From the IMG/VR virus record IMGVR_UViG_3300045988_137103: a stretch of DNA of 64,000 bases; one strand, written 5' to 3'. A program made the translations under genes and the position numbers. Positions 1-61,726 of this stretch are shown one piece after another. Every line of letters starts with the position of its first letter. Position 1 is the first letter of the stretch. This DNA is from a virus. The notes under the pieces are model-generated. The model was not told the DNA's origin. It worked only from the letters and a program-made list of their open reading frames with translations, and did not search any database.

Positions 1-495
1 AATGATGCCTTCCTGGTTATCGAGAACAATACCGCTTACTCTCGTATGAACAATACCGAGGGCAACCAGTCAGAGCTGTTCTTCCCTATCCTCATCCCTC
101 TCTACAGCAACCTTTATAGTGCCTCCCAGTCCAAGCTGAAGAAGGTGAAGAATATCGAAATGAAATGGGGATTCAACACCAATAAGGCAACAAAGGTGGC
201 AGTAGTGAAGACGATGGCAAGAATCATCCGTGATAGTGGCTATATGGAGCGAGAACTTGCAGCCATTGATGAATGCACCTACTTCCTCTATTACAAACAG
301 AACGACTGTTATGGAGCAGTAGCCGGCAAGCATGATGACCGTGTTATGGCCAGAGCCATAGCCCTCTACGTAGAGAAGGATATGCCTGCACCTGAAATAG
401 TTCCATTCAGGTCAAAGGCAGAGATAGAGCGTGAACGTCTCCGCAACCGCCCACCAGTAGTAGCTGATTTGGCCGGAATAGGTGGGGGCAGCTAG
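1..495 (+). CDS. terL: Terminase large subunit, C-terminal nuclease-domain fragment (5' end cut by window start)
   Basis: Frame 1 is open from nt 1 (NDAFLVIENN...). It carries VIENN and GKHDDRVMA acidic motifs typical of the RNase H-like nuclease half of TerL. The matching ATPase half lies at the other end of the window. Confidence 0.75.
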   Translation, partial: NDAFLVIENNTAYSRMNNTEGNQSELFFPILIPLYSNLYSASQSKLKKVKNIEMKWGFNTNKATKVAVVKTMARIIRDSGYMERELAAIDECTYFLYYKQNDCYGAVAGKHDDRVMARAIALYVEKDMPAPEIVPFRSKAEIERERLRNRPPVVADLAGIGGGS

Positions 496-1198: not shown

Positions 1199-3256
1199 CT
1201 ACATAGCTGCCGAAGGAAGAGCTGCCAAATCATTCGCACCATCACCGGAATCCTTTAGGTGCGTATCTGGTTCTGCTGACAGTTGTTGCTGGCCTCCGTC
1301 TGTAGGTACCTGTCCATTGGCTGCTTGCTGTGCCTGAAGAGCCTCCAACTTTTCCAGTTGCTCCTTGAAGTATTTCCTCATTCTGCCTGTACCAGGGAAA
1401 TTAGCTACCGTAAGCATCGTATATGGGTCCATCTTGCCGCTCACCATCATCTGCCAAGCCATATCTTTATTTGTATCTCTGATGAGTGGGCTGTATGCAT
1501 CCAAGTCGATAGAAACATCTAGATCCATATCCCTCATGGTTTTCGAGTTGAAATGAATCTCAAATTCATCACCTGTCAGTTTTACGCTGTCTTCATCGGT
1601 ACAAAATTCCTGTATCAGGTAAAGTTTCTTCTTGGCCACGCGTACCTTGAAGTTGTTGAAACTCTCCACAAAGTCCTGTATGGTGGTAGATGATGATTCT
1701 CTTTCCAACTGATATTGCTTACCGCTGGTGTTCCGGTGCTGGCCTTGTAGAGCACCCTGCACACCACTACCCTCGCTCGCCATCGTCTTGGCAAAGTTCA
1801 CCATGAAGTCAACACCTGCCGGAATACTCTTGTTGACCAGTGTCTGCGGTGGCTTACCTCCATTCTTGGAGTTCCATAAGATAAAACCATCTGTCTTGGT
1901 ATAGTTCACCTGCATTTCATCGATGCTCTGTTTTTCGCTCAATGCGTTCTCATCAACAAGCATCGTTCCCTTGGCACCATTCGCTACAATGAAGTTGATC
2001 ATCATCATATAATGGTTCAAGGTGCGCTGGTTGTTTTCTGCTCGCATCGTGAAACTTCTTACCTCGCCATTCAAACATGGATAGGCATCGAAGGTGTATG
2101 GATGGATAGAGGTTCTGAATCCGTCCCTGAGCACATAGTATGGTGATTCCCTGGCATCCAGCAGATAGCCATTCGGTGTGATATATCTTCTGAACCAGTA
2201 GGTTTCAGCCTCATCCTTAATCTCGATGGTCTTAAGTTCAGAAGGGTCTACATAGTAGATAGGCTCACCATTCTCATCGAGCACAGGTAGGCCATTCTCA
2301 TCTTTCATGATGTTGGATTCCTCTATCTTACGCTTCTTTTCCTCATAGAAGGCTCGTTGGTCGGGAGATGCATAGCCGCAATCTCCACTCTCCCAGTCAT
2401 GTACCCAGATGGCAGGTCTGGTTTCTTTTGTCCAGATTTCCAATACCCGGTACTTGCCTACTACTGAAGAATGGGTGAAATCATCTATTCCGGCATACTG
2501 GGCTTCACCAGTCGGGTGATAAGTCTGTTCGGGCGCAAAATGGTGCTGCGTCTGTAGATAGATCTCACTGAGTTTATTAGCCTCTTCCTTGCTTCCATTT
2601 GTAAAGGTAGCAATAATCTCACGCCAAGTCAAATCATGAGCCTCAGCAATAAATTCCACATCGCTCAGATCATACTTAAAGAAAGGTGGTATAGCTAGCT
2701 TAAAGATGTCTACAGAATAGTCAAAGATGCCATTTTTGCCATCCCTTCTGCCATAATAGGTTTTCATGCCCACAAAGGCGAATACACAGAAGGCATAGAA
2801 CATTCTCGCATCTAACTCTTGCCTTTCGTTCTGGTTGTCGTTCTGACGAAGATATTCATTGAAGAAACTGATATAGTCTTCCTCGTTTGGATCCACGGCA
2901 CTACATGTAGCAGTACTGCGCTGCTGGCGCACAAGACCAACGAGCGAAAGAAGTTTGTCTCCGATTACATCGTATTCCAGTATTGGCATACCTTTCAGTT
3001 CCATATACTGCCGGATGGTAATCTTTCTTCCGTTCCATTCTATCAGCTCTTCCAACTGTCTTCCCATCACGAAGTCTTGCGCTCGCTTCCACTTCTTTCT
3101 CAGTTCTGCACCATCATAGAAGTATTGGCAAGCCCATTGCAGCAACAGAAGATTGCTTTCGCTCTGCGTAAACCGCTCTCGGCTCACTCCTTCAAGTGAG
3201 TCTGGTCCCGGCTCTGCATAGTTCGATATGTCATTTATTACATGATTGTCAACCAT
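1199..3256 (-). CDS. Putative portal protein (685 aa)
   Basis: The size fits a portal and the gene lies next to the terminase. It sits behind its own late promoter and has an acidic Gln/Gly-rich C-terminal tail. Called from context and size, not from a diagnostic motif. Confidence 0.6.
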   Translation of the reverse strand: MVDNHVINDISNYAEPGPDSLEGVSRERFTQSESNLLLLQWACQYFYDGAELRKKWKRAQDFVMGRQLEELIEWNGRKITIRQYMELKGMPILEYDVIGDKLLSLVGLVRQQRSTATCSAVDPNEEDYISFFNEYLRQNDNQNERQELDARMFYAFCVFAFVGMKTYYGRRDGKNGIFDYSVDIFKLAIPPFFKYDLSDVEFIAEAHDLTWREIIATFTNGSKEEANKLSEIYLQTQHHFAPEQTYHPTGEAQYAGIDDFTHSSVVGKYRVLEIWTKETRPAIWVHDWESGDCGYASPDQRAFYEEKKRKIEESNIMKDENGLPVLDENGEPIYYVDPSELKTIEIKDEAETYWFRRYITPNGYLLDARESPYYVLRDGFRTSIHPYTFDAYPCLNGEVRSFTMRAENNQRTLNHYMMMINFIVANGAKGTMLVDENALSEKQSIDEMQVNYTKTDGFILWNSKNGGKPPQTLVNKSIPAGVDFMVNFAKTMASEGSGVQGALQGQHRNTSGKQYQLERESSSTTIQDFVESFNNFKVRVAKKKLYLIQEFCTDEDSVKLTGDEFEIHFNSKTMRDMDLDVSIDLDAYSPLIRDTNKDMAWQMMVSGKMDPYTMLTVANFPGTGRMRKYFKEQLEKLEALQAQQAANGQVPTDGGQQQLSAEPDTHLKDSGDGANDLAALPSAAM

Positions 3257-3273: not shown

Positions 3274-3355
3274 CAAAAATACTCTTTTTTTTGCCAACCT
3301 TTGTGATAATCTGCGCAAATTATCACTCTTTATGCTCCCTTTTATTGTATTTTTG
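3274..3355. promoter_or_regulatory. Bidirectional late-type promoter (portal on the minus strand, 3403 ORF on the plus strand)
   Basis: Perfect palindrome GTGATAAT-CTGCGCAA-ATTATCAC at 3303-3326. TAnnTTTG boxes lie exactly 29 nt from the octamer on each side: CAAAAATA at 3274-3281, which is TATTTTTG on the minus strand, and TATTTTTG at 3348-3355. Confidence 0.65.
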
Positions 3356-3402: not shown

Positions 3403-3879
3403 ATGGGTAAATCTATCAATGTACATGAAGCCTGCGTCATTACAAAAGATGATAAAGGCAACCTCTCCATGGTAGGCAAGGCAAAAGAAGCCCTTACCAC
3501 CTTGAAGAAGAATAAGGTTTCTGTCTGCATTCTTCTCTGTGACAACAAAAAAGATGATGTAGAAAAGTTCCTTAACGATAATAATGTACCTTTCGCCTCT
3601 CTCAGTACCAAGGAGGAGACCGATAAGGATGGCAACACCAAGCATGTTGATCCACCAAAGGCAGATGTAACCATCATGCCAAGTTCCAAGGTCATCACTC
3701 TTCGAGACGATTGGCAATGGTGCTTGGATGATATTGCCCAACGTCTCTGGGGCGAGAAAAAGAAGGAGAATCCAAAGAGTGAACAACAGCGCATGGATGA
3801 CAGCATGGCTGATTACATACGCTGGGCAACACCAAAGAAAAAGGAACCAGAGAATGCATCTGGTCCTTCTCTCGGATAA
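3403..3879 (+). CDS. Hypothetical protein (158 aa)
   Basis: ATG ORF downstream of the plus-strand -7 box and followed by a hairpin terminator at 3973-4006. It is more protein-like than the two overlapping antisense ORFs. Confidence 0.6.
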   Translation: MGKSINVHEACVITKDDKGNLSMVGKAKEALTTLKKNKVSVCILLCDNKKDDVEKFLNDNNVPFASLSTKEETDKDGNTKHVDPPKADVTIMPSSKVITLRDDWQWCLDDIAQRLWGEKKKENPKSEQQRMDDSMADYIRWATPKKKEPENASGPSLG

Positions 3880-4097: not shown

Positions 4098-7000
4098 CTA
4101 CTCCATTCCGTTCAACGTTTTTAGCAGCTCCTTTCTGGTATTCCGAATCTCTACCAGTTTGGCAGCATCGTTCGTACCATCCATTTGCTTCTTAGCCTTA
4201 TTCATCTTCCTTCTTGCAGCAGAGATAGCCTTTCTAGCCGCAAACAGTCGCTTGTTGGTCTTGCTGTTCTTAAAGGCATTTGCCTTCGCCTTATCAACAT
4301 CCTTCAAACGCTGATACTCCTGATAAGTCTCCATGGTTCCGTTCCAGACGTTCTGTATTCTCCAGTCCTCCGTCACGTCCTCTGCCTTAGCCTTTATCAG
4401 GTACTTGCTTTCAGCCTTCTCCATTTCCTTCAAGTCTTCATCACCGTTCAGATAACCCTGCACCATGTCCAGAGCCTCCTTCTGGGTGAAAGCCTTGTAA
4501 TCACTCTGCGAGAGGAATTTCTTCATCTTCTGGCGCATCTTCTTCTTTTCCGTGATACTCTTGGCAGTATCAAAGCGTTTACTAGCCTCCTGTAAGGAAG
4601 TCACTCCATCGCTCATTTCTGCACTCTCCAGTGCCTTCACCGAACCGATGGCAGCCTTAATCTGAGCCTCAGGATCAATACCATTGCGCTGGCAGCTCTG
4701 ATAGGTCATCACCACGCCCTCCATGTCACCGCTCAGGATAAAGTCCTTGAAGTAACTCTGAGCCTTCCATGGAGAGAAGCCCTTAGAAGAAGGGAAGAAG
4801 AAATCAACGGCCTTGAACTCCTTATTCTCCTGACTCGGAATCAGGAAAGGTGCCCAGTACAAAGCATCCTTATAAAGCAGTCCGATGGTCTTACCATACT
4901 TGCGCTGAATCTCTTGATCCGCATGGCTGGCTTGGAAATCGCTCAGATAGTTTATATCATCCAAGGTCATTCTCACCATAGGGTTAGCCTTACCTATCAT
5001 TCGCTGTACCATAGGTCCAGGGAACTCTAGTTCTCCCTTATGATTGAAAAGGTATTCCGGAACCTCACGGAATTGCTTACCATGTCTCACATACATTTCT
5101 GTACCATCTTCATATCTGCCTAAGAAGATCTTGCTCTGCTGGCCAAGGCTGTTGCCTCTCATCAGATAGTCATACCATTTTATACCCTCATCACCATAAG
5201 CCAGTTCATACATACTCTTATAGCTTGGGTTGGTCTTCCGGATCTCCTCTGCCTTCTTGCGCTCCTTCTCCTCGTCCAGGGCACGGAAAGCAGCATTGAT
5301 GCCATTGGCAATACCCTCATAAAATACCATGAATCCGATACCATAACAGAGCAAAGCCGAAATCTGCCTGCTTCTTCTGCCTTCATCCTCCGGTGCAAGT
5401 TCCTTATGTTTGAGCCTCTTGTAATACTGTTTGAAGTTCTCAAAGGTTGCCTCATTCCAGATAGAACCAAATCCGGTTAATGCCAGAAAATGACGTGTAG
5501 TAGAAGCATTCCAGTCTGAAGAAAGAAGAACTCGTCCGGCATAGCGCAAGGTACGATGGCTGGCTCCCAACACATCCCAGTGCTGACCGCCAAACATATC
5601 GTTTACAAACTGTCCGTCCTCGTCCAAAGCCCGGCTCAGTTCCTCCTCAGTCCAACCCTTCTTCTTGGCACGCTCTTTGGTCTTGTCTGCCCTCATACGA
5701 TAGGTAGCAAGTTTCAGTCCATCATGTAGGAAATCCCACAAAGCAACATCCATACCCTTATTGATGAGAGAAAGCATCTGCGTTGCCACCTTCAATGGCA
5801 TAGAAGCCTTAGCCACCGTTCCGGAAATTTTATTTCCGTCCTTCAACTTCTTCTGCACCTTTATCATCGCATCGCGCATGTTGTCAAACATGTTCTGTAC
5901 ATCCGCTGCAGCATAGTCGTTGGTCGCTCCGAACTTCACCAGATGGCTAGCAGCCTCTTGGAAATCCTCAGGATTGGCGAAGCAAGGAAGTTCATGGTTC
6001 TTGGCTGTATCTGCAAAGATATACTTCATAAAGTTGGCCATAGCCTTCTTAGGTCCAAACTCCACCATATTCTGTACCATATAAACCTCCGTCAAGGCTC
6101 CGGCATGGAAACCGCTAAAGCCCAATTCCAGTTTCTTGGCACTAGAAGCAAGCGTATCAAACGTTTTCCAAAATGGGGAAGACTGATAGGTATCAAACAC
6201 AACTCCAAATCTGTCACCGGCACTGGCCTCGCTATAGAGCACCTTTTCGTTGTCAGTGATAGGATTCTTCACCTTCACTTGCTTTGGAGATACATTATAT
6301 ACCCATACAGGGCCTACGCCCGGAATCTCAAAGTACTTATATTGCTCCAAATTGAATGGAGCAGAAGAAGAAAGTAGTGGATCAGTTGAAATCACCTCTC
6401 CTTTTTCATTCCTCTCAATTACGTTCAGTCCGGTCAACTCCTGTAACATGGTCTTGTTCGCCCATGCCTCAATATTACTTCTGCTGTAATATGCCATCAT
6501 CTTCGTAATGTCAGTAGTTTTTGGCACAAGTCCGGCATAAACACCTTCCATCAAAGTGCTGATGGTTCGCTTCTTCTCATTAGGGCTCTTCGTGCGCTGC
6601 CTATTCTCCACAAAGGTAGCATACGCCTCAGGATCAGATTTCTCTTTATCCCAAATATGATTTACGTAGTCAACATTATAACCAGTGCCAGCTTTCAAAG
6701 TATGATTATCCATCAACCAGTCGTAGGTATAGTTATACCAGTCACGGATGGAATCAATGGCAGCCTGCATTTCAGGAGAAAGTTCCTTATAATTGATACG
6801 TCCAGGCACTACCCTCTCTTTTACGAGTTTCAAAACATGCTTACTGAGGATGTCTGTTCCATCACATGGTACAAAACCTTCCTCGCCCTGGTGATTGGCA
6901 TTAATTGCCTGAGCCATTTTGCTTGCCACCTCGCTCACAGCCTTAGGATCATCGTATACCTCTATCTCCTTGCCTTTTTTAATCTCTGTATGCTTCTTTG

Positions 7001-10000
7001 CTGTCTCGGTAATCAAGTCTGTCACGTATGGCTGGATAGCCTCAACATCAGCTGGCTGAATATGGATATGTCCCTTATCAAAGACACCAGTGGCATTTAA
7101 GTTCTGAGCCATGTCACGCAAACGTCTAGGAGCCTCTATTATATAAGGTATAGTCTCGGCAAGTTTTTCTGCCCTGTTTTTCTTTCCCTTGTAATCAGAA
7201 AGCAACTTGTCAAAAACACCGCTATCAGCCATCTTCTCGATTCTGTTCTTCACATCATTGATATAGATGGCATCATCAGCACTAGCCTCTTCCATGTTCT
7301 TTCTACGATGGATAACGGCATGCTTAACGGTCTTTGCTGCACCTTCCTTGCTCACGTCAGTACTGGTCACTTCTGCCAAATCCTGCATCACTTGCTGCTC
7401 CAGTGCATCAGCCTTCGGATTGGTCTCTGCTGGGTAAATCTTACCCTCATACAAGTCCAGATCGGCTTGTTGCTGCTCCAGCAAATCATGTTTGGCCAGC
7501 CAGTCCTCATACTTGCGTTTCACCTCCTCCTGCTTCTTCTTTTCGAAGGCAAACATATCTGGCAAAGGGTCTTCCTGGTCCTTCATGGCTGACTGCCATT
7601 TCTCATATTCATGAATACGATTCATGTAGGCAGCATCCTCTTCACCTTCCATTCGGATAGGCATACCAGTAGGTTCCTCGCCAACAAGGTGGTGGCGTTC
7701 ACGCCAGTCTTTATTGAGTTTTGCCCATTCCTTCTTGCCTACTTCATCCTTATCAATGTCGTAGAACATAGGAGGCTCTGGGTTCTCTTTATCCTCGCGC
7801 GCATTCTGCCACTTGCGCCATTCCTGTACACGTTTCATGTACTGAATAGTGCTTTCGCCCTTCTTCTGGCGTGGTTTACCCTTACCTGCACCATCACCCA
7901 GCGCATCCTTGATTTCAGCATTGCTAGCCTGCTTCATCATGGCTTCCTGCTTCTCCTGAGGCATTTCGTCCCAAACGTGCAGAGCCTTGCCAGCCTTCAT
8001 TAGGTAGTATCTCAAATCCTTGTCATTGAGAAGTCCCGGCACACGAACACCCAGCTTCTTAAGCACCTTGATAAGATAATGCTTAATCTTGGTCCAAAGA
8101 GAAAAGTCCTCAGCAGTCTTAGGACCCTCCTCGGCCAAATGAGCGATATACTCCTGCGTTCCCACATTCATGCGGTCAGGGTTCTTCCAGTCCGGATCAT
8201 ATTTGTTGGCAAAGTCAATAATCTTGCCTCGAACATCCTTACCTACGGAACGATAAACGAAGTTGGCGAACTTTCTCACGCCATCTTCGCCACCAAGAAG
8301 TACTTCCATACCCTCATGGCCTATCTTTTCATGCAGCACCGTTCTCTCAGCCTCGTTGGCATCAGCACAGTTAGGCAGATAAACATGCACCGTGTGTGTA
8401 GTAGGGTCATACCATCCGGTAGCCCCATTCTTCACATCACTCAGATAAGCATCAGGAACCTCATCCACAGAAGTGTAAACTGTAGCCTCAGCACCACCCA
8501 GTTTGTTGGCAGTGTTCACTACCCGGTCGCTCACTTGTTTCTGCTTGTCTGCATCCCAGTTGTTCTTGAAGATAGAGCTGCCAAGTCGTGCCAATACATT
8601 TCTGCCCGACAAGTCATCCTTATTCAGCAGAGGAGCAATCACGCCCTGAGTCAACTGCACCGGAATACCATTACCAATGATGGTATGTGCCAAAGATTCC
8701 GTCTTAGGCAATTTATAGTCATCGCCCAGTCCGGTAATCCTAGCCAATACCCTGCCATCTGCACGCAATACCTTTCCACCCGGCATGATGATCACATCAC
8801 CACTCTTGGTTCTCAGCGTAGGCAGAATTTCATCCCCATAGGCATGAGGAATCTTGCCATCGGCATAAGCACTACCCATTACATAAAGAGGCTTCTCCAC
8901 CTTCTGCCAGTCGATACCATCAACCTTCAGTCTGGCATCCATCCATGGAGCCACACCGCTTTCTTTCACCGTCAGAGTAGGAAGAATATCCTCCACAGCC
9001 TCTAGCCATCCACCCTTGCGTGGTTGCTTCTTAGGCTTTTCAGGCAGTTCTCCATCCTTCACGGCTCTGACAATTAGTCGCTCCCTGCTGGTATAGCCTC
9101 CAAAATCTGCGGCATTATACACGTCTACATCCCATTTGTAGCCGTTCTTATCCAGCGCCTGGGTGATAATCTTCATCGCCTCAGAGTCCTTGTAACCCTT
9201 CACGTTCTCGATAGTCACCACTCGCGGTTTCACGGCATCAATGAAGTCGGCAGTGCTCTTGGCAGTCTCCTTGTCAAGCTCCACCTCTCCACTATTACTC
9301 TTTGCCTGCGAGTAGTTCTTGCATACAGGAGAAGCGTGAAAATACTCTACCTCACCATCAATCTGCTTCACCAGTTCCTTAGGATCCACATCCCTCACAT
9401 CAGCCGTAACAATATGCTGCCCGAAGTTATTGCGATATACACCGCTTATCTTCCGGTCATACTCTACAGCCACCACTGGGTCGATAATGCCCTTCAATCC
9501 CTCTTCAACCAGTCCACCACCGCTAAAGTAGGTACCTGCCTTCATCAGAGAATCAGGATGCTTCTTCAACTTCTGCTCCAAGATAGGAGATTGCGCATTT
9601 TTACCGTACACCTTGGAATAATGCACACCATCATTCTCACCTCCTACGATTCTGCCTCTGTTATCGGTCTCCACAAACGGCACACCTCGCTTCTCCAACT
9701 CTTTTCTGAGACTTGGAGTAACCACATTCGAAGGCATAGTGATATTCTTGCCCTTGAACATATCATTGACGATAACATCAGCCACCTCGCTGTCAGGCAC
9801 GATACGCACAGGCTTATCCCAACGAGAAAGCACCACTTTGCGCTTGCCTGTCAACTGTCCTTGGATGATACCAGCCTTCCACTCTACTTCGCCCACGGCA
9901 TCCTTGGCTTTATCAGCCTTGTAGCCACTGGTCAGCTCGCTCTTTGGCACCTCAACCTCTACGGTCACGATATTAGGGCGATTCTGAGCCTCGCTAAACT

Positions 10001-13000
10001 GGTCGTTCAGTGGAGTGCGAGAAGTATGAAGGTAAGGATTGTAAGCAGCCTTAAGCGATTTACCATTACCCTTGTTTAGGGTAAACATACCCTTATCATC
10101 AGCAAGTTCTGGTCGCTCATCTGCCTGTTCCCACTTACCGAGTTCGATAGGTTCCACAAACTTGCCCTTCACCTTTGCAGCCATCGGTGGATAGAGTTTT
10201 CCATCTTCGCCTACCTGCATGGCACGATAAACCTTCACCGTGTCTTCTTTATCCAGCTTCTTGATGGTCTCAGGGTCTTTCACGATGCTATAGCTAGCAT
10301 CATTCCCATTCATCACAATCTGCTCGTCACGGTTCACGTCCTCAGTTTCAGATGCCAAGGAGTTTCTGCGCTCCTCGTCCGTCATACCCAAACGCTTCTC
10401 CACATTTCGAGATTCAACTTCACCAGCCAACTTTCTATATTCTTGGTAAGAATCAAAGTCTGTACGCTGGAACCTATCCAAACGGAAACGCTTAATGGCA
10501 TCATCCATACTTCTGTCTGCATAGCCACGTGCGAAGTAGTTGAATCCCTTAATTCGGGTTTCCTTGTCAGGAATGAACTCAGGCATATCCATGTCCTTAT
10601 ATTCCTGAATAAGGGCTTTCTCTACAGCAGATTGGTTATACTCACCACCCATTTCCTTGGCTTTCTCTTCCAATTCAAAGGCATAGGAACGTGCCTTCCA
10701 TTCAACCTTAGCAGCATTGAAATCCCTCTCCACCTGCTCGGGTGTGCCACCATGCGCAAACCCCTCTTCACGCTGAATTACGTGCTGAATTTCATGATTC
10801 AGAATGCTATTCAGATACTTTAATTCATCCGCATGAATGGTAATAGTCTTTGTTTGTGGATTGTATTCCCCATTTGAAGGCATGTCATTCATTACTGCAT
10901 CAGTATGGATTTTAATATTTTTCAACTGAGGATAAGCCTCAAAAAGCTTTGGTGCATCCACAGCATCTTCCAACTTACCATCAGTCCATAGCATATCCTC
11001 TTCGAAACGTTTAACGATGTTTCCACCACCTACATCGATGGTGTCCTTTATCTTGGCATCAGGCATTTCGTATCTCCACTTGCCATCCACGCCTTTCTCC
11101 CAACCTGTAGCCATCTTGATAACCTTGGCATCCTTCTTTGCCTCTTCCATCTGCTTAGCAACATCCAGATTATCCATGCGGATAGTTCGCTCATCAGCCT
11201 TATCAGCCTCAGCAGCTCCCTTTTCTCCAGCAAACATGAAGCGAATATCGCTCTTGCGAGAATTGAAACGCTTAGAAGGAGGAATAACGTCACCCTCATC
11301 ATCATAGGTAACAAGGTCGTTCAACTTTCTATTATTCTTGGCATTCTTGTATTTATACTCCTTGCCATCATCAAAGCCAAACTCGTTTGCGTCATTACCA
11401 TCCCACCACAGTTGAGTAGCCGGAACTTCGTCTTCAATGATACGATATTTGCCTTCCAGTCGGTTCGTTCCGTGCATTTCGGCATATTTCTTAGAAGGAG
11501 TAACCCAGTCACCATTACGCAACTTTCCTTCCTTCACAGAAGTAGGAACAGCACGATAAACCTTTACCTTAACATCCTTCTCGCCATTCTTAATGGCATC
11601 AATAGCCGTATTGATGGCTTTCACAGATTCCAATCCATGAGGAGTGTTCTGCGAATAACGCTCAGGGTGAGAGAAGTAATCATCAGGCTGAGGAGTGTAC
11701 CCCAAAGCCATATCCTCCAGGTTTACATCTGAGCCACTGGATTCCCAATCGTCACGTCTCGCCTTGTCGCTTTCATATCCAGGGTTTCTCGGTGCAGCCC
11801 ATGCACCTACGCCCTGATATGCGCTTTCGGTATCGTCATATCCCTTGCGTCTGGCAGCCTCATCAAGCATTTCCCTGGCTGTAGCATCATCACCCTTAGA
11901 AAGAGCATCCATATACTGCTTGTCAAGTTTATCATCAGGAATCAAAGAAAGTTCCTCCAAGTGCTTTTTGCGTTTGGCTTCCTCTTCCTCTGCTCTCTTT
12001 CTAGCAGCTTCCATAGCATTACGCTCTGCTTCAACCTGCTTTATTCGTTCCTCTATCATTGCATCAAGGTCACCAAAATTCTCCTTCAAGGCTTCATTTA
12101 TAGGTTTGGTGTACTTAACAACATCCTTAAATGAGAAAATGTTACCTTCATTTACCTGCATCAAGTGACGCTTAATATTGGCTCTGGCACGTGCAGCCTC
12201 AGCAGTAGAACCCTTCTTAACAGCATTGGCATACATTGCCACATCTGCCTCATCTACCCCAAATTGCTGAGATACAGCCTTAATTTTATCCTCCACAGAT
12301 AAATTTCCACCATTTTCCTTGGTGATTTCAAAGGAATTGCGTATCTTTGCATCGCTATGAGGATTCAGGACGCTATCCTTTCCGCTTGGGTTATTTGCGG
12401 ATGGAGTTAATGCCGAACCTTGATTCTCGCCCAAGGAATTAGAATCGCCTCTGAAACGATTCCATAGCATTTTTGATTCCGTTAATTCTTTCAACAATTT
12501 TGAAGGCTCTATTTGATGGGCACTGATTGAAACTTCATCCTCGCCTTGCTTTACGGTGATTGATTCAAAATTCAGAATCTTTGTTCCGTCTACTTTCTTG
12601 AAAGACTTTACAAACAGATACTTGGTCTGTCTTTCTGCACCTTCTTTAGGAGCAGGCTTCTCTAAGATAACATCTGGACGCTCCAAGGTAGGTTTCAATA
12701 GACCAAATCGTTTGATTCTGTCTTCTCTACCAGCCTTTTTATATTGGTTTTCACCTAACTTGATGCTACCTATTGGTGTATTGACACGACCATCCTTGCC
12801 GAAATCCTGTAACCAGTTATCCTCTGTATGTTCGAGGATTCTTTCAGGCTCGGCATTATCAGCCATCTGCTGGCGTAAAGACACAGCTTCGTCCTTGGTC
12901 ATTTGACCTTTCAGCACGTTACGTGGGTCCACACCATTAGCCAAGTCTCTCAGCACAAGGTTACGAATATCCTCCAAGGTCATTTTCTTGATGTCCTCAG

Positions 13001-16000
13001 GCTTCCACTTGGTGAAGGTCTCCAAAGTCCAATACCAGAACTTCTTCAACCACTCCTTCAACTTATTGATAACACTCAGTTCCTTAGCTGTATCAAGCGG
13101 ATTCTCCTTGATGGCATCCTTAGCCATCTGTTCAAGTATTGCTTCACCATCCTCACCAGTCAAACGAGCAAAAGCCTCATCGCAAATCTCGTCATCGCTC
13201 AGATGCTTATAGTTAGGATCCTTCTTCAAATCGGCAAATAGCTGGGTCTGCATGATGAGTTTATCACCATGCTCTATAAGTTCCGGATTCATGTTTTTGG
13301 CAGCAGTACGCCAAAGATGTTGATACTCATGAATAGGAGTATTAGGATTCAGATGCTCCGCGTTCAGCACAATCTGCTTGCCATCAGTGTAGCCATAAAC
13401 CACACCCTTTCCCTTCAAATACTGCACTCCAGGCTCAGCAACAGCCTTCAACTGATTATCTAACTCAACATACTTATGGAACAAGTCATCAAGTGTATCT
13501 TGATACTTTTCAAAGGATTTATCCCTGTAGTCAGTCCAAACATCATCTGGAATATCGTTCTCAGAAGATAAACCGTGTTGGTCCATATAGTCCTGCATTA
13601 ACTGATTTTGATACTCTGCTCGCTCTTTCTTCTTGGCATTATAGGAATCCTCGGTTTCTTTAATCTGCTTCTCTAACTCGATTCTCTTATTGAGCAGAGA
13701 TTCAGCCTTGTAAGGGTCAAACTCACTAGGAACATCACCCTTCACGTCCTTGATCTGCTCCTCAAAAGGCTTATTCAGATTAAATGCCTTGTAGTTTCCT
13801 ATCTTCCAGGCATTGGTATAGTACTTGCGCCACTTCTCCGCTAAGTCCTTCTTTTCAAAGTACTGAGGAGGTTGGTTCGGATTATCCATATTGACGATGG
13901 CATACTGCTTAAATTTGTCCGGTCTGTTCTTTGCAGCCCAGTCATAAGCTGCCTTGGCCGCCTCCTTCTGCTCAGGAGTCTTGATATAGAAGCGCAAACG
14001 AGGATCATTCAAAAGCATTTCGACTGCCAAATTATCCTGCGCCTCAGCCACCTTCTCCATATCCTCATTGCTAACAACCTTCACAGGGATGCCAGCCTTC
14101 TTAAGCATAGTAGATACAGTATCATAAGCCACCTTCTGCGCCTCCGTCATTTCCGAAGGCTTCACCTCCTTCACATCGCGGTCAAATTTCGCCTGTTCCT
14201 TCTGTACCATAGCATACTCCGCAAAAGGCTTAGTCTTGCGGTCAGAAGACTCCAGCCACTTATCAAAGGTAGTCTTAGGTACAGAAGTAACCTTACCAAG
14301 TCCCTTCCAGCCCTTGGAGTAGTTGGCAAGATAAGCCTCTGTAGCTGCCTCTTCAGAAGGATAGCCATACATCACCTTATGCTCGTCAAACTCACCAGTC
14401 TCTGGGTTCACTTGGTCAACAACATAAACGTTACCATCAAAAGTATCAAGGTCAGCTGCATCATTGATGAACATATCAATATGATCACCATCAACGCCAA
14501 TTTTACCAAGGATATAGCCGTAAGTATCGTGCATGGTCACACTCCAAGGCTTGCCCTGCTCGTCCTTACCGCTTCGAGTCACGCCCTTTGGTGTTTCTAC
14601 GGTATAATCGTAGCCACCAAAGGACAAATGACCCTTTTTGTAGTTACCAGCCTTCTTCTGAGCCTCTGTAGGTTCGGTCTCAGTTTCGGCAATGGCACTC
14701 TTTAAACGTTCTCCGAAGGATGCTTCTTGCGGTAGATGTGAGCCTCGAACAGCTGAGCCTTCGCCAGGTTCCATGCTGCCAGTCTCTTGTCGCCCTTTGC
14801 GTCCGCTATCAGAGCCTTCTCCAATCTCGGACTCAGAAGATGCTTCTCCGTTACCAACTTCTTCGCCTTGGCTATTTCCTTCATCAACTCCTCTCCGTGA
14901 AGAGTCGCTACCCAGGCTACTGCCTCCTCCATATCCTTCTTCATTGCTTCTGTCATCATAATCTGCTAATTCTGGTAAAATTGATTTGACATATTGTTTG
15001 TACTCTCGTTCACGATCCTCAATCTCCATCATACGGTCAAATTCAAGTCCATTGATGTGATCAAGTTCGCTTTCAGGCGGCAAAGATAACTCTTTTTCGT
15101 GAATATACGATTTATATTTCTCAATTTCTGCCTGTCTTTCGATAATTTCTCGCTCTTTCTGTGCTTCGTAATACTCTTCCTCGCTTGAAAGTTCATCTTC
15201 TGCAGCTGCTATGCGGTTCATCAGAGCCACATTTCTCATTTCCTTCACACAGTCATAAGACTTGAACATATCAAGAAGGGTATTACGAACATCTTGATCG
15301 GTATATCCCATATCCTGCAAGTTTACAGGAAGGTCATTATATACTCTCACAGCAAATTCGTTAACCGACATACCGGTTCCTTTCTTTGCAATAAGATAAT
15401 TGAACTTATTAGAATCATACCCCTTGCCAATACCAAACTTAAAATTGCTCTTGCCCAACTCATATTGAAGAGATTCTGGATTCAAGCTATGAGGAAGCAA
15501 AGACTCTGATACAGCCTCTTCGAGAGTCTGAGGAGTTAAGTCCATCACATCAACGGAAGCATCCTTATATATTTCATGGATAGCTTTCATATCGTTCTTC
15601 TTCAGCGCATCAGCCACCAATGCCTTGCGTTGCTCTGAAGGTGTCATGCCCAGTTTCTCCATTTCCTGCTTGCTAACTTCCGTTTTGTAGAGTCTGCTGA
15701 GTTTATTAGCCTGAGCCTTCAAACCCTTGGCAGCAACAGACAAATTAGTCTGCAGGGCCTCCAGTTGAGCCTTTGTAGTATTCAATTCCATAAGTTGGCT
15801 AGGGTCCAGCTCTGTTTCACCATTGATATACTGATCCAGCATATCATTCACACCATTTATCTTGCGCTCCACATCCTCCTGGGTATGATAGATGTCCTTG
15901 CGCTGAGAGGTAATATAGTCGGTAGCCTCATCCATAGTTGGATATTGCTTCTTCAATTCTTTATCATCAAGTACGAGCACATGGAAATCATCAGATGGCA

Positions 16001-22400: not shown

Positions 22401-22482
22401 CAAAAGTAATGCGTTTTTTGCAAAGGTTATTGATAAATTGCGCAACTCAAACACCCATATATGATATTTTTCTGTATATTTG
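22401..22482. promoter_or_regulatory. Bidirectional promoter centred on palindrome TTGCGCAA (22438-22445)
   Basis: The minus-strand -7 box TACTTTTG (CAAAAGTA at 22401-22408) and the plus-strand TATATTTG (22475-22482) each lie exactly 29 nt from the octamer. TTTATCA flanks the octamer on the minus-strand side. Confidence 0.65.
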
Positions 22483-22522: not shown

Positions 22523-22906
22523 ATGGCAGTAAAACAAGAAAATAATAATGAGCCAAAGCCAAAAAGGAAGAAGACTGGCGGACGCAAGGCAGGCACACCT
22601 AATAAGGTTACCAAAAGTGTTCGTGAAAGTCTACGTGATGCCCTTACTGGCTACATCAATGGTATCAATGAGAAGAACTATTCTCTTTTCACGGATCTCA
22701 TGCAGATTCAAGAGCCTGCCGGACGTCTGGCGATGGTGGCAAAGTTCCTTCCATACGTGGCTCCTAAACTCCAGTCTGTATCGTTCAATAATGATGAATC
22801 CAGAAACTTATCTGTGGAGGAATCTTTCATGCAGTTGGAAGAGAAATTTGAGAAACAAGAAACCACTATCAACATCAAAAATCTCAAAATTGTTAATAAT
22901 GGCTAA
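22523..22906 (+). CDS. Basic DNA-binding-like protein (127 aa), function unknown
   Basis: N-terminal KRKKTGGRKAGTPNKVTK motif. Convergent with the integrase. Could be a small-terminase-like or recombination-directionality-type protein, but nothing decisive supports either. Confidence 0.65.
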   Translation: MAVKQENNNEPKPKRKKTGGRKAGTPNKVTKSVRESLRDALTGYINGINEKNYSLFTDLMQIQEPAGRLAMVAKFLPYVAPKLQSVSFNNDESRNLSVEESFMQLEEKFEKQETTINIKNLKIVNNG

Positions 22907-26442: not shown

Positions 26443-26772
26443 TTATCCTACATGTACCTGGCTTCTAGCCGAAAGACCCTGAATCTCCCTCAGCACCTTA
26501 TTTTCCGCTCTTAGAGCTATTACTTCTCGTTCCAATTCATTCATATCTACTACACTTCTATTGGACAAAGAAGGCGTTTTCTTATCTGAACTAAAAAACT
26601 CAGCAACATCTACACCAAGGACTTCAGCAAGGTTTTCAACTGTACTAACCTTCACATCAGCACCGTTCAGAAGGTTATCCAACGTAGTTCGACTAACCTT
26701 CATCCTAGAAGCAATATCAATTTTGCTAAGTTTGTTGGACGTTATGATGTCCACTATTCTTTGCACATTCAT
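26443..26772 (-). CDS. XRE-family HTH repressor (CI-like)
   Basis: HTH segment LSKIDIASRMKVSRTTLDNLLNG...VENLAEVLGVDVAEFF with a coiled-coil C-terminus. Divergent from the plus-strand early operon. Confidence 0.75.
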   Translation of the reverse strand: MNVQRIVDIITSNKLSKIDIASRMKVSRTTLDNLLNGADVKVSTVENLAEVLGVDVAEFFSSDKKTPSLSNRSVVDMNELEREVIALRAENKVLREIQGLSARSQVHVG

Positions 26773-26917: not shown

Positions 26918-27340
26918 ATGAAGAATGAAGATAAAAAAGTTCCAGATGCGCCTAAAAGGTTATGGGTTTTTCCATATCATTTAAATCGGTTAGGAGGCCT
27001 AGTATATGCATATGGGCATTCCTATAAAGAATATTGGGAAGGGCATGAATATCCAAAGAATTTGGATAAAGATGTGGAATACGTCAGCCTCAGCCAATCT
27101 TGGCATAAGGCAAAGGAAGTTCCAAAAGATTTGCACACCTATATCATTGGTGTTTCCAAAAACTTCACTCATCCGGTTCTTATTGACTTAGAAAAGAAAT
27201 GCCTGCATAAGTTTTATGATGCTGTCAAAATAAGCGATAAGATGAAGTGGAACGGAATCATCCGGAAAGATTTTCGCTTCGCTTACTGGGCTTACATTAG
27301 GGACTTAGTTCCTACTATTGAGGAAGGAGGCACAAAATGA
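26918..27340 (+). CDS. Hypothetical early protein (140 aa)
   Basis: First ORF of the plus-strand early block. Its stop overlaps the next ATG (ATGA). Confidence 0.65.
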   Translation: MKNEDKKVPDAPKRLWVFPYHLNRLGGLVYAYGHSYKEYWEGHEYPKNLDKDVEYVSLSQSWHKAKEVPKDLHTYIIGVSKNFTHPVLIDLEKKCLHKFYDAVKISDKMKWNGIIRKDFRFAYWAYIRDLVPTIEEGGTK

Positions 27341-27507
27341 AAAAGAATAAAGCTCTATTCCTCGATATTATGCTCAATAACAGATTTGTATGCACACTGA
27401 AATACATGTATTGTCCATTGTTCGTGATAAGATACGAGGAGTTATTAAAGTTTGTTCTCGATAAGAGGCCATCTTTGAAAGGCAAACCATTCAGAATAAT
27501 GTTTTGA
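27337..27507 (+). CDS. Small hypothetical protein (56 aa, below the ORF-track cutoff)
   Basis: ATGA overlap with the upstream stop at 27337-27340. Translates to MKKNKALFLDIMLNNRF...KPFRIMF. Preferred over the antisense ORF 27315-27515. Confidence 0.45.
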   Translation: MKKNKALFLDIMLNNRFVCTLKYMYCPLFVIRYEELLKFVLDKRPSLKGKPFRIMF

Positions 27508-27529
27508 AACAACAAACGAAATCAGGCGT

Positions 27530-28114: not shown

Positions 28115-28132
28115 TAATTAAAATCAAGCAAT

Positions 28133-28324: not shown

Positions 28325-28335
28325 AAACAATAGTC

Positions 28336-28635: not shown

Positions 28636-28696
28636 GATTTTACTTTTAGGATAGATATAAGGCTGATATTGATTAGTACAAATTATGCGAAACTAT

Positions 28697-28837: not shown

Positions 28838-28865
28838 AATATAAACAATATAAAAAGATAAAGTT

Positions 28866-33840: not shown

Positions 33841-33841
33841 T

Positions 33842-36311: not shown

Positions 36312-36992
36312 ATGGAAGTAAAAATTGCACTAATTATTTGCCTCAGCGTGGTCTTTATATTCACGCTAGGCATCGTCTCTTGCACGCTAAGAGACAAGAA
36401 CTTCAAGGCTCGATTTGACAAAAGTAACGAGCGTTTAAAGAGAATCATCAAAGAGCAGCATGATGAACTTATCTCGTACAGAGAGGCTATCAAGAAAAAT
36501 GATGCCAATCTAGAAAGATCTCTAGAGGTGTTAGCTTCTGCTTCTGATGTAATCAAAACCAGAATGTCTCGTTTGAAAGATACGGAAGAAGCTCTATCCA
36601 TGTTAAAGGTTGAAGTTGCAGACCTCAATTTGGGGCAGGATAAGTCTTTAAAGAAGATGGATGAAGCTATTCGGTCATTCTCTTCATGCGTAAAGAAAAT
36701 TGAGAATAATAATGAGGTATCATTCAAACACTTTGAACAATATCTTGTCAGTCGTCCTTCCTACCTCTCTAAGGAAGAGAAGAAGCATTTCAAGGAATAT
36801 ATGCAATCATGTGCCAGAGGCTATACATATATTAGCAATATGCCAAACAAAATGGACTTAGATTTTGTCTGTCTTGAAGATGTAGTAAAAGCACTTGAAT
36901 TTGTAGGTAGAGACCAATGGGATTCATTATACATTAAATACCCATCAGAAGAAGAATATGCCAATGGACAGAATACAGAACGAAATCAGTAA
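36312..36992 (+). CDS. Putative lipoprotein / membrane-anchored coiled-coil protein (226 aa)
   Basis: N-terminal hydrophobic segment ending in a lipobox-like GIVSC, followed by a long heptad-rich region. Confidence 0.6.
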   Translation: MEVKIALIICLSVVFIFTLGIVSCTLRDKNFKARFDKSNERLKRIIKEQHDELISYREAIKKNDANLERSLEVLASASDVIKTRMSRLKDTEEALSMLKVEVADLNLGQDKSLKKMDEAIRSFSSCVKKIENNNEVSFKHFEQYLVSRPSYLSKEEKKHFKEYMQSCARGYTYISNMPNKMDLDFVCLEDVVKALEFVGRDQWDSLYIKYPSEEEYANGQNTERNQ

Positions 36993-37194
36993 ACTTCGTC
37001 ATGAGCAGCATTTGCATGAAAGACTGCAAGAAGCCCAACTTCGACAGATAAAGCGTGAGCACGATGGTCTTCACAAGTGGATTACCATTAAGCCAAATCT
37101 CAGGCTCCTCTGCCGGATAGACGAACATGGCAAACTCCTCCCTATAGAACAGGAGCGCATTAACAAGATAAAGAAAACATTAGGCATCAAATAA
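36958..37194 (+). CDS. Hypothetical protein (78 aa)
   Basis: ATG ORF overlapping the previous gene by 35 nt. Confidence 0.5.
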   Translation: MPMDRIQNEISKLRHEQHLHERLQEAQLRQIKREHDGLHKWITIKPNLRLLCRIDEHGKLLPIEQERINKIKKTLGIK

Positions 37195-37195
37195 T

Positions 37196-37771
37196 ATGAG
37201 TGAACAGGCAGCCCTCGCATTTCGTAAGCTAGTAGCTTCTATGCGAACATTAGAAAAGCAGTATTGGGCACACCGCGATAAAGCCGCCCTCCGGAAATCC
37301 ATTGAACTGGAAAAGCGCGTTGACGATACCATCATGAAGGTTGATCCCAAAAACGTACCGCAAACAGACAATGGGAACTTCTTTATCCTGGTAGCTGAAC
37401 TTCGGGTGGCAACTAAGCAGTATTTCTCTGAGAAGAAGAAACCTGATCCTGACAAAGAACTGGTGAAGACTCTCTTTAACACCATCAAGGAGAAGGAAGC
37501 AAAGATTGATCAGCAGCTCATACGCTTTCAGGAAGAAGACTTTCGCAAACAAGGCTACACAATTCAGTACCATGTCATGGAACGTCCATACAAATGCCCT
37601 CCTCATAGCCTCTTCCAGTCCACTGATGAACAGTTGGCAAATGTGATGTTTAATGATTACTTGCGCCATCCCTCACCCGGTACAATGATCTTCATGATGA
37701 AGAAGTACATCGGCAAGGATGGTAAACCTCTCTCAGACGAAGAAATCGATAAATTAACGTATAACAATTAA
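37196..37771 (+). CDS. Hypothetical protein (191 aa)
   Basis: ATG ORF with protein-like composition. Confidence 0.6.
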   Translation: MSEQAALAFRKLVASMRTLEKQYWAHRDKAALRKSIELEKRVDDTIMKVDPKNVPQTDNGNFFILVAELRVATKQYFSEKKKPDPDKELVKTLFNTIKEKEAKIDQQLIRFQEEDFRKQGYTIQYHVMERPYKCPPHSLFQSTDEQLANVMFNDYLRHPSPGTMIFMMKKYIGKDGKPLSDEEIDKLTYNN

Positions 37772-37919
37772 AAACAAAGAATTATGAAAAAAATCAGAAA
37801 AGAAAGAAGAGTCTGCACAAAATGTTGCAGCCAAAGTAAACGTTGCAACCGAGAAAATCATCGGCACAGGCAATTACCAATCTCTCCGCTCTCGCTCCTC
37901 AACCTGGTTTGAGTGCAAA

Positions 37920-38366
37920 GTGAGATACGAAAAAACACGTGAAGATGGCTCCGAAAAAATGACAACGGAACATTACACTGTAGATGCGCTCTCTTTCACC
38001 GAAGCAGAAGCAAAAATCATTGAAGAAATGGCAGTCTACGTCTCTGGTGAACTGAGGGTAGATAACATCAACAGAGCTGCCTATGGAGAAATCTTCTTCT
38101 CCGACATCAGCGATGATGATCTCTGGTTCAAGGCTCGTCTTGCTTTCATCACCATTGATGAGAAGAGTGAAAAGGAGAAACGTTCCTACGTTACCTATCT
38201 CGTACAGGCAAAGAGTCTAGAACGTGCTCGCCGCTATATTGACGAGGTGATGGGTAAAACCATGATAGATTACGAGGTCAAAGGCCTCAACGAGACTAAT
38301 ATCATGGATGTTTTCGAACATAAATCCTCTTCTGACGAGAAAAAGGATGAGAAGTCCGAAAAATAA
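37920..38366 (+). CDS. DUF4494-like protein; 5' end uncertain (apparent frameshift at an A7 tract)
   Basis: RYEKTREDGSEKMTTEHYTVDALSFTEAEAKIIEEM...FITIDEKSEKEK...YLVQA matches my recollection of Bacteroides DUF4494. The conserved TWFECK lies upstream of the GTG at 37920. That frame is open back to 37788 but has no ATG. Confidence 0.65.
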   Translation: MRYEKTREDGSEKMTTEHYTVDALSFTEAEAKIIEEMAVYVSGELRVDNINRAAYGEIFFSDISDDDLWFKARLAFITIDEKSEKEKRSYVTYLVQAKSLERARRYIDEVMGKTMIDYEVKGLNETNIMDVFEHKSSSDEKKDEKSEK

Positions 38367-38374
38367 GTAGTAAT

Positions 38375-38413
38375 CTTGCGCATTTCGGTCTACTATGGCC
38401 GAAGTTGCGCAAG
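38375..38413 (+). terminator. Hairpin after the DUF4494-like gene, built from two TTGCGCA half-sites
   Basis: CTTGCGCA-T-TTCGG-(loop)-CCGAA-G-TTGCGCAAG. The 3' arm is the upstream element of the 38405 late promoter. Confidence 0.45.
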
Positions 38414-38449
38414 TTATCACTTTTTATTCTCATTTTTCTCGTACCTTTA
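38405..38449 (+). promoter_or_regulatory. Late-type promoter for the plus-strand block 38481-42911
   Basis: TTGCGCAA-GTTATCA, with the -7-like TACCTTTA (38442-38449) exactly 29 nt after the octamer. Confidence 0.55.
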
Positions 38450-46240: not shown

Positions 46241-46285
46241 CAAATTTAAGTCATCATTTCCGATTCTCTGTGATAAATTGCGCAA
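46241..46285 (-). promoter_or_regulatory. Late promoter of the lysis operon
   Basis: On the minus strand, TTGCGCAA-TTTATCA (octamer 46278-46285), with TAAATTTG (46241-46248) exactly 29 nt after the octamer. Confidence 0.6.
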
Positions 46286-61681: not shown

Positions 61682-61726
61682 CTAAATTAAGGAAAATTTC
61701 GCATAACTTATTGATAAAATGCGCAA
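61682..61726 (-). promoter_or_regulatory. Late promoter of the scaffold/capsid/tail operon
   Basis: On the minus strand, TTGCGCAT-TTTATCA (octamer 61719-61726), with TAATTTAG (61682-61689) exactly 29 nt after the octamer. Confidence 0.55.

Follow-up and report, generated by a model that had tools for sequence, protein, structure and literature searches.

The window, by which is meant the whole 64,000-nt stretch analysed here, is nearly the whole genome of a temperate tailed Bacteroidales phage, encoding both an integrase and a CI-like repressor. Because TerL is cut at both ends of the window, the genome is taken to be circularly permuted, with a length of ~64.4 kb. The host is Segatella (Prevotella) copri: the close homologues are named from that species and promoters of the phage are found in S. 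copri chromosomes. A near-identity search of GenBank phages gave no match to the window and an Rfam search of the window gave no family match. The nearest cultured phages are BF1-TP2, BS-TP4, and BKO1-TP3 from Bacteroides, which have ~26-30% portal identity and an overall layout like that of the window, including a giant protein; the giant polyvalent protein of the window (5476 aa) has InPase, PBECR2, LPD23, and C5-methylase domains. The family is mosaic: relative L012 shows 97-98% identity in one module and 50-70% in the adjoining modules. The main genes and operons are the following.

1199-3256, minus strand: portal
23040-24542, minus strand: tyrosine integrase
26443-26772, minus strand: CI-like HTH_3 repressor
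26918 to 38366, plus strand: early operon, with C5 methylase, replication initiator, and nuclease
46208 down to 43100, minus strand: lysis operon, with a holin-like ORF (45690-46208), endolysin (45203-45739), and three further ORFs
50435-51706: reverse transcriptase of a diversity-generating retroelement
52016-52363: bAvd of the same retroelement
61655 down to ~52500, minus strand: scaffold, capsid, and tail genes
~62706 to 64000 and 1 to 495: TerL, split by the window ends, ~390 nt missing

Seven sites in the window combine the octamer TTGCGCAA, or a variant of it, with a -7 box at a fixed distance, and six of the seven also carry the hexamer TTATCA on the promoter side of the octamer. Their parts are listed in order along the window.

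3274..3281, minus strand: -7 box TATTTTTG of the portal promoter; predicted transcription start ~3269, portal ATG at 3256
3303..3326, both strands: bidirectional core GTGATAAT-CTGCGCAA-ATTATCAC, with the octamer at 3311-3318
3304-3309, minus strand: TGATAA (TTATCA on the minus strand), within this core
3320-3325, plus strand: TTATCA of the plus direction, within this core
3348..3355, plus strand: -7 box TATTTTTG, promoter of the 158-aa ORF 3403-3879 (MGKSINVHEA...)
22401..22408, minus strand: -7 box TACTTTTG of the giant-protein operon; ATG at 22371
22431..22445, minus strand: TTGCGCAA-T-TTATCA of the giant-protein operon (167 aa, 431 aa, and the 5476-aa polyvalent protein)
22438-22445: palindromic octamer of the giant-protein operon, also serving the plus direction
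22475..22482, plus strand: -7 box TATATTTG, 29 nt from octamer 22438 and without TTATCA, promoter of ORF 22523-22906
38365..38427, plus strand: hairpin and T-run at the end of the early operon; -29.6 kcal/mol, z -7.8
38405..38419, plus strand: TTGCGCAA-G-TTATCA of operon 38481-42911 (110, 249, and ~140 aa, and a 968-aa putative structural protein)
38442..38449, plus strand: -7 box TACCTTTA of this operon, weak, last base A; ATG at 38481
46241..46248, minus strand: -7 box TAAATTTG of the lysis operon; ATG at 46208
46271..46285, minus strand: TTGCGCAA-T-TTATCA of the lysis operon
61682..61689, minus strand: -7 box TAATTTAG of the scaffold/capsid/tail operon; ATG at 61655
61712..61726, minus strand: TTGCGCAT-T-TTATCA of the scaffold/capsid/tail operon (60843-61655, 59222-60802, and downstream genes)

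All seven sites are oriented toward the gene downstream, and the leader from each -7 box to a conserved start codon is 18-66 nt; the start of the 158-aa ORF, for example, is conserved in 22 distinct relative sequences. The 127-aa product of ORF 22523-22906 is homologous to the DUF5681 protein gp71 of BF1-TP2 (E 1e-11). The 968-aa protein, whose gene a preliminary description had placed with the late units, does lie behind a promoter of the shared class, and its homologue in BS-TP4, gp26, is annotated by the depositors as a putative structural protein.

The composite TTATCA-N22-TAnnTT occurs at six sites in the window, compared with a mean of 0.27 and a maximum of 3 in 300 dinucleotide-preserving shuffles. 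When the octamer (one mismatch or fewer) is required as well, the window still has six sites and 300 of 300 shuffles have none, so the shuffles exclude a chance origin of the repeats. A regular expression of the form N8-n-TTATCA-N22-TAnnTT returns exactly the six sites of the preliminary description and no others. The invariant spacing claimed there is also found: an octamer with at most one mismatch lies 29 nt from a -7 box in seven cases, and each of the other spacings from 24 to 34 nt gives zero or one. The significance is confined to the composite motif and does not belong to the octamer variants per se. One-mismatch octamers alone number 30, where 27.9 are expected, and are not enriched. 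The exact octamer is present in four copies against 1.08 expected; one of the four, at 48528, is intragenic, has no TTATCA, and is unrelated to any promoter. The TerL operon (start at 61750, plus strand) has only a degenerate look-alike with different spacing, and so not literally every late unit carries a clean copy of the motif.

Two of the octamers, at 3311 and 22438, serve divergent promoters, as had been proposed, and this arrangement fits a symmetric dimer. The core at 3303-3326 was previously called a perfect 24-bp palindrome; it is matched at 22 of 24 positions, its octamer being CTGCGCAA, and in relatives it reads TGATAAG-TTGCGCAA-CTTAACA or CTTATCA. The plus-strand -7 box at the second site is present as described; its 29-nt spacing is kept in six distinct relatives, and TATATTTG stands exactly 29 nt from the octamer in seven distinct sequences, in which the hexamer position is variable. 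Since the 22475 promoter has no TTATCA and still keeps 29 nt to the octamer, it is the octamer that appears to position promoters on both sides.

On the numbering used for the -7 element of Bacteroidota promoters (T-12 A-11 n n T-8 T-7 T-6 G-5; PMC6847099), which is adopted here for all parts of the motif, the 22-nt spacer occupies -34..-13, TTATCA -40..-35, and the octamer -49..-42, with its centre at -45.5. A transcription start about 5 nt past G-5, as expected for sigma-ABfr promoters, would be compatible with start codons 18-66 nt beyond the box; the predicted starts are near 3269, 22396, 46236, and 61677 on the minus strand and near 3360, 22487, and 38454 on the plus strand. The downstream element matches the sigma-ABfr -7 consensus of Bacteroidota and is an exact TAnnTTTG at five of the seven sites, the exceptions being TACCTTTA and TAATTTAG. 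A -33 element, TTTG at -36..-33, is absent from all sites, where these positions are CA followed by two spacer bases; the sole TTTG in a spacer is at about -28..-25 of site 22438, minus strand. Even the host promoters of Bacteroidota have a weak -33 element (PMC6847099), so its absence here is no proof of activator dependence. A matrix of 137 distinct related sites gives the consensus AAG-TTGCGCAA-C-TTATCA-C, in which AAGTTGCGCAACTT is a perfect 14-bp palindrome, and shows A-rich preferences in the spacer near -18, -22, and -28 and nothing else. At the unidirectional sites symmetry is limited to the octamer, and TTATCA flanks it only toward the promoter, an arrangement that would suit an asymmetric reader as well.

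The motif is conserved at orthologous positions. Eighty loci were fetched by DUF4494 homology alone, without use of the motif and thus without ascertainment bias. In 80 of 80 loci the motif (one mismatch or fewer), with a -7 box at +22, stands ahead of the orthologue of the 110-aa ORF; for the holin-like ORF, with up to two mismatches allowed, the count is 77 of 77. Among distinct sequences, TTATCA has a majority-base fraction of 1.00, compared with 0.95-0.98 in the octamer, 0.73-0.88 in the spacer, and 71-84% in the upstream flank, so that the conserved stretch is short (15 nt) and its flanks have diverged. An exact-match scan of IMG/VR for TTGCGCAANTTATCA gave at least 122 matches in at least 120 stretches. 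Among the matches listed, TAnnTT follows at exactly 22 nt in at least 58, TAnnTTTG is found at the 22-nt offset at least 32 times and once elsewhere, and the sites stand ahead of the corresponding orthologues on contigs from the gut that are 55-64 kb long. The motif is also retained in L020 (IMGVR_UViG_3300010998_000046), a relative whose proteins are only 40-49% identical to those of the window; it has the exact TTGCGCAATTTATCA at the portal/158-aa bidirectional site, where a perfect bidirectional TGATAAATTGCGCAATTTATCA lies between the two genes, and a one-mismatch copy, TTGCGTAATTTATCA, ahead of the scaffold gene.

Some relatives have degenerate octamers, such as ATGCAGAA before the scaffold gene and TTCCGCTA before the lysis genes, with TTATCA and the spacing unchanged. 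As the octamer may degenerate while TTATCA is invariant, the decisive contact may be TTATCA and not the palindrome. More distant phages have other boxes: BF1-TP2 has TTTATCG-N22 at five sites (the homologue of the 968-aa gene, portal, the DUF5681 protein, scaffold, and Ant), and BS-TP4 has AAAAAGATAA-N24 before the -7 box, seen at two sites. The group thus has the architecture in common, with an upstream box that is lineage-specific (TTGCGCAAnTTATCA, TTTATCG, or AAAAAGATAA); different boxes at a similarly fixed distance are what phage-specific activators would predict.

Outside these phages the pattern is nearly absent. In 185,579 species genomes (one genome per species), the full 45-nt pattern was found at 12 loci. 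Nine of these are the phage lineage of the window, in S. copri genomes or in contigs that are probably mis-binned, and the remaining three are chance matches in unrelated bacteria. In S. copri genomes, that of strain G8 (NZ_CP146523.1) among them, every full-pattern match is an orthologous phage promoter. The confinement of the full pattern to the phage lineage indicates that the motif is not a signal of a host regulon. Within the window, the immunity region, which encodes the CI-like HTH_3 repressor, has no copy.

Proximity to gene starts, the Bacteroidota -7 element, and conservation at orthologous positions together suggest that the seven elements form one promoter class for virion and lysis genes. 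The reading preferred here, with a probability of about 0.6, is that they are late promoters transcribed by host sigma-ABfr polymerase with the help of a phage-encoded dimeric activator on the octamer. The TAnnTTTG -7 element would be read by host RNA polymerase carrying sigma-ABfr, the primary sigma factor, and in place of the usual -33 element there would be the phage-specific TTATCA and the abutting octamer. A dimeric DNA-binding protein, most likely produced from the early operon, would bind the octamer with its centre at about -45.5 and would recruit or stabilise the polymerase by stereospecific contact, a contact that would account for the invariant spacing. The promoter-proximal TTATCA may be a flank of the dimer site or a contact for the polymerase. 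As the octamer is symmetric, one bound dimer could serve both sides at 3311 and 22438. We infer that these promoters act late, that they depend on an activator, and that the activator belongs to the phage; candidates for it are listed below.

The preliminary description left the choice between a dimeric activator, from phage or host, and an alternative sigma factor. The symmetric sites fit a dimer; the confinement of the pattern to the phage lineage makes a host activator unlikely, and the sigma-ABfr -7 box, together with the lack of any sigma domain in the scanned ORFs, makes an alternative sigma factor unlikely. The early, small, and most other ORFs were scanned against Pfam, PHROGs, and NCBIfam, and the structural genes against PHROGs only; no Mor/C, Ogr/Delta, MotA, or sigma domain was found.

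TTATCA, with or without the octamer, could instead be a -35-like element, read not by a classical upstream activator but by a phage sigma-like subunit or by region 4 of the host sigma factor after remodelling by a phage factor, as in the sigma appropriation of T4 AsiA/MotA. No other block is as invariant as TTATCA (1.00), which occurs solely on the promoter side, always 22 nt from the -7 box, and persists where the octamer degenerates; BF1-TP2 keeps TTATC(G) at 22 nt without any octamer. This explanation, the main rival, is nevertheless unlikely. The scanned ORFs have no sigma70_r2/r4, MotA, or AsiA-like domain, TTATCA is 5 bp farther upstream than a normal -35/-33 element, and the promoter opposite the giant-protein operon has no TTATCA but has exactly 29 nt to the octamer.

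The box could also be an operator at which a phage repressor silences intrinsically active late promoters, in the lysogen or early in infection. Palindromes beside promoters are typical of repressors, and the phage, with its integrase and CI-like repressor, is temperate; its -7 boxes are also close to the consensus, and host promoters frequently have no clear -33 (PMC6847099). However, the site (-56..-35) lies before the core promoter, clear of both the -7 box and the start site, and the motif is missing from the immunity region, in which a CI-like repressor has to act. A repressor also needs no invariant spacing, which is seen here across >130 distinct sites, and the combination of invariant spacing with one site serving two divergent promoters argues for contact with the polymerase. 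An operator is accordingly given a low probability. That a host transcription factor or host alternative sigma reads the box, so that the late genes are plugged into a host regulon, would explain why no phage-encoded reader was found, but it is very improbable given that the full pattern occurs only in copies of the phage among 185,579 species, with all S. copri matches being orthologous phage promoters. Least credible of all is that the repeats are non-regulatory, arising by chance or as recombination-promoting module boundaries: the family is mosaic and the sites are at operon boundaries, but chance is excluded, and such repeats would not have exact -7 phasing, gene-ward orientation at seven sites, and 15 conserved nucleotides amid diverged flanks.

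Activation of late promoters by a phage protein has several precedents. Ogr of P2 and Delta of P4 are phage activators of about four dispersed late operons that share an upstream dyad combined with a host -10; the Ogr site, TGT-N12-ACA with its centre near -55, is read by a small zinc-finger protein. The motif in the window differs from this in sequence and position, and no Ogr_Delta domain was found in the scanned ORFs. In T4 middle promoters, which involve sigma appropriation by AsiA, a phage box stands in for the -35 and keeps a constant distance to an unaltered host -10; this MotA box has its centre at -30 and lacks palindromic symmetry. The box described here (-49..-35) is 10-15 bp farther upstream, and MotA/AsiA homologues were not found in the same scan. 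The late promoters dependent on T4 gp55 or SPO1 gp33/34 differ in that the -7 element of the window is host-type and no phage sigma domain was detected, and lambdoid Q control, with a single late promoter that has a Q-binding element and a long antiterminated transcript, differs from seven promoters on both strands that serve separate units.

The closest architecture is that of the Mu middle and late promoters activated by Mor and C, where, according to PMC4390567 and PMC2582627, a dimer binds to a dyad centred at -43.5 in promoters with a -10 but no normal -35. The two systems appear to share a primary-sigma host holoenzyme, a -10-type element, no normal -35, and dispersed promoters with a common site, and the dyad centre is at -45.5 here; the likeness is in architecture only. 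No Mor/C-family protein was found in the window (Pfam, early and small ORFs), and the phage of the window differs from Mu in having sigma-ABfr with a -7 element, single sites that drive two divergent promoters, and an additional asymmetric TTATCA. The proposed mode would be like class II activation generally. The nearest precedent within the phylum, compared by its description, is the crAss-like phage phi14:2. According to a preprint (bioRxiv 10.1101/2020.03.07.982082), its middle and late genes rely on host RNA polymerase and on phage-specific, extended promoters of three blocks, with conservation among related phages; the blocks are -35/-10-like and PCR fragments were transcribed in vitro by the E. 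coli sigma-70 holoenzyme. That phage is virulent and has a virion RNA polymerase, and the preprint is not known to report a palindrome or bidirectional use. Compared to the standard sigma-ABfr promoter (-33 TTTG / -7 TAnnTTTG; PMC6847099), the sites have the same -7 element and short leaders, but no -33 TTTG and a 15-nt phage element at -49..-35.

Systems that combine dispersed late promoters with a phage-specific upstream site and a host -10-type element are familiar. What is new about the one in the window is its sigma-ABfr context and its sequence, its use in both directions, and the lack of any known activator family in the scanned ORFs. A search of the literature for the motif or for late-gene control in Bacteroidales temperate phages found nothing; TTGCGCAA was found only as a eukaryotic C/EBP site or in primers, and no mention of DUF4494 was found. 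The motif probably marks a phage-specific, activator-driven late-gene switch. Temperate Bacteroidales phages are abundant in the human gut, and for these the motif is a precise cis-element for late control; the family includes 235 DUF4494-linked IMG/VR contigs, and there are clusters with >1,300 members. It could be used to annotate late operons and true start codons, to predict transcription units in metagenomic phages, to supply induction-dependent promoters for Segatella/Bacteroides genetics, and, as AAGTTGCGCAACTTATCAC, to serve as bait in a DNA pull-down for the first late activator of a Bacteroidota temperate phage. The symmetric site with two divergent promoters at equal spacing would be a clean system for activation of sigma-ABfr polymerase.

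Among 55 relatives with 10 kb of upstream sequence, five ORFs of the early operon are present in 54-55: the replication initiator, the nuclease, and a cassette of three genes directly upstream of promoter 38405, which are candidate trans-factors.

36958..38366, plus strand: conserved cassette at the end of the early operon
36958-37194, plus strand: 78-aa ORF
37196-37771, plus strand: 191-aa ORF
37784 (ATG) to 38366 (stop), plus strand: DUF4494 gene (Pfam E 1.9e-44)

That the reader is the 78-aa ORF, the 191-aa ORF, or the DUF4494 protein is quite doubtful, and the role assigned to the cassette is a presumed one. The 78-aa ORF has no Cys motif. DUF4494 is a family of 2,483 clusters (50% identity) in temperate and virulent Bacteroidota phages, including crAss-like phages, and together with the C5 methylase it is the sole early protein common to the window and BF1-TP2. 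In BS-TP4 its gene is among RecT, VRR-NUC, and replication genes, and participation in DNA metabolism is no less probable than a part in transcription. One AlphaFold model, from a shallow alignment, had a pLDDT of 47 and was useless; a second had a pLDDT of 92.6. Foldseek comparison of the second model with the PDB gave only weak matches to eL20, a ribosomal protein (E 7e-3, TM 0.25), a viral structure library gave only other DUF4494 proteins, and a profile search of PDB sequences gave nothing. If DUF4494 is the reader, it would be a new class of late transcription factor adapted to sigma-ABfr polymerase, and TTGCGCAAnTTATCA, TTTATCG, and AAAAAGATAA would be its diverging targets. The gene is frameshifted in the window, with a run of seven A at 37787-37793 where 35 relatives have six; such a lesion in the best-placed candidate is a point against the activator reading.

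Other candidates have been considered and rejected. Two proteins were earlier put forward as HTH readers of the box. The HTH_17 protein (49210-49560) lies in a separate unit that has a host-type promoter and a terminator to itself. BF1-TP2 encodes no homologue of this protein, its gp44 being unlike it, and the positional counterpart in L035, a relative that has the motif, is very divergent; for these reasons it was demoted. ORF 39559-39981 has no HTH that could be detected, being without support in Pfam or the PDB, and shows only a weak AbrB-like resemblance: it resembles gp27 of BS-TP4, called AbrB/MazE/SpoVT-like by its depositors (E 3e-4), and gp32 of BF1-TP2 (hhalign 90%). A link between the GCGC core and methylation by the phage C5 methylase was discarded, as the match to M.HhaI is in the catalytic domain only and GCGC is not depleted. 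The resemblance of TTATCAC to a DnaA box was also discarded, as the two differ in length and the window encodes no DnaA_C-like protein.

The promoter at 38405 is part of a further structure. A second copy of the octamer, TTGCGCAT at 38376-38383, is 29 bp upstream of the octamer at 38405-38412 and pairs with it, and the octamer pair and an inner inverted repeat, followed by the T-run, make up the hairpin at 38365..38427, which is likely the terminator of the early operon. This strong hairpin stands between the early operon and the operon of ORF 39559-39981 and argues against start-up of the latter operon by read-through. Covariation support for the hairpin is weak. The inner stem differs in most relatives but the hairpin is kept, with energies at this locus of -18 to -30 kcal/mol in all but one type. 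The late-promoter element itself forms the 3' arm of the stem.

Upstream boxes at a fixed distance from a -7 box are also present in the two distant Bacteroides phages, each phage having a box of its own: TTTATCG-N22-(T/C/G)AnnTTTG in BF1-TP2 (PQ571263) and AAAAAGATAA-N24-TAnnTTTG in BS-TP4 (PQ571277). The positions of these boxes, and of one ORF in the window that is shared with both phages, are as follows.

PQ571263: 15978, 39178, 42157, 46098 and 61001, TTTATCG boxes of BF1-TP2
PQ571277: 23330-23470 and 37470-37550, AAAAAGATAA boxes of BS-TP4
Window 39559-39981, plus strand, ORF of about 140 aa with the motif GRITLRS..KLL.L..GDKI

The annotated start codon of BF1-TP2 gp33 lies upstream of that gene's own box, so the start annotation is probably wrong. 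The ORF of about 140 aa directly precedes the 968-aa structural gene in the window, in BS-TP4 (gp27) and in BF1-TP2 (gp32); gp27 is annotated as AbrB/MazE/SpoVT-like, and the product may bind DNA or act as a partner in assembly.

Further features of the window are listed here.

38365-38427, hairpin and T-run separating the early operon from the 38405 promoter
37784-38366, DUF4494 gene, its 5' end out of frame at the A-run 37787-37793
46209-46240, minus strand, 5' leader of the lysis operon, GCATCGTTTCCATAACG.AGTGGGGACGGATAA
61737-61750, plus strand, start of the TerL operon, with the -7 box TAACTTTG 5 nt upstream of the ATG
62706-64000 and 1-495, plus strand, large terminase (TerL) gene, with the C-terminus at the window start

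The hairpin at 38365-38427 is strong (-29.6 kcal/mol, z -7.8) and combines two octamer copies, set at a distance of 29 bp, with an inner inverted repeat; it is probably a terminator, with its 3' arm serving as the upstream element of the 38405 promoter. In the adjacent DUF4494 gene, the ATG is followed by A7 in the window versus A6 in 35 related sequences, which cuts off codons 1-45, including the conserved strand WFECKVRYEK, from the remaining frame. A generally error-prone sequence is unlikely because the 16.4-kb giant ORF is intact, and the A7 may reflect a genuine mutation, slippage or an isolated homopolymer error.

Among relatives, conservation of the lysis-operon leader (0.95) exceeds that of the promoter spacer, pointing to a regulatory RNA or an element that controls translation. 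At the TerL operon, close relatives share the window's 5-nt gap between -7 box and ATG, implying either that the mRNA has no leader or almost none, or that the true start lies elsewhere; the only resemblance to a late box upstream is the degenerate TTTCGCATAACTTATTGA, at the wrong spacing. The TerL gene itself is split over the ends of the window with about 130 codons absent between them, so the genome is circularly permuted and measures about 64.4 kb. The listed ORF 46-495 represents nothing but the TerL tail.

The remaining features are a giant gene, the methylase domains, and two gene groups on the minus strand.

4098-20528, minus strand, 5476-aa ORF for a polyvalent protein, whose domains are InPase, PBECR2 nuclease, LPD23 and C5 DNA methylase
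30757-31803, plus strand, and 4098-20528, minus strand, the two C5 cytosine methylase domains of the phage
48960-50210, minus strand, three-gene unit inside the late region (183 aa; HTH_17 protein, 116 aa; hydrophobic ORF, 60 aa)
50435-53272, minus strand, diversity-generating retroelement
50435-51706, minus strand, its reverse transcriptase
52016-52363, minus strand, its bAvd
52496-53272, minus strand, its candidate target gene

The 5476-aa protein has giant homologues in BF1-TP2 (gp68) and BS-TP4 (gp3), and a search of the ORF for the DFDxD RNA-polymerase motif found none. GCGC, the core of the late-promoter octamer, occurs in a phage that encodes two C5 cytosine methylase domains; the genome shows no GCGC depletion.

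The HTH_17 unit carries a host-type -7 box of its own near 50200 (TATTTTTG) and a clear terminator, a hairpin and T-run at about 48960-48990. Its sequence is 97-98% identical in a mosaic relative (L012) whose adjoining genes are only 50-70% identical, and by this comparison the unit resembles a mobile module or moron. In the retroelement, 52496-53272 has a weak match to the Pfam Lcl C-terminal domain (E 1.4e-6; 29.0 bits, below the 34.9-bit cut-off) and is the probable target gene.
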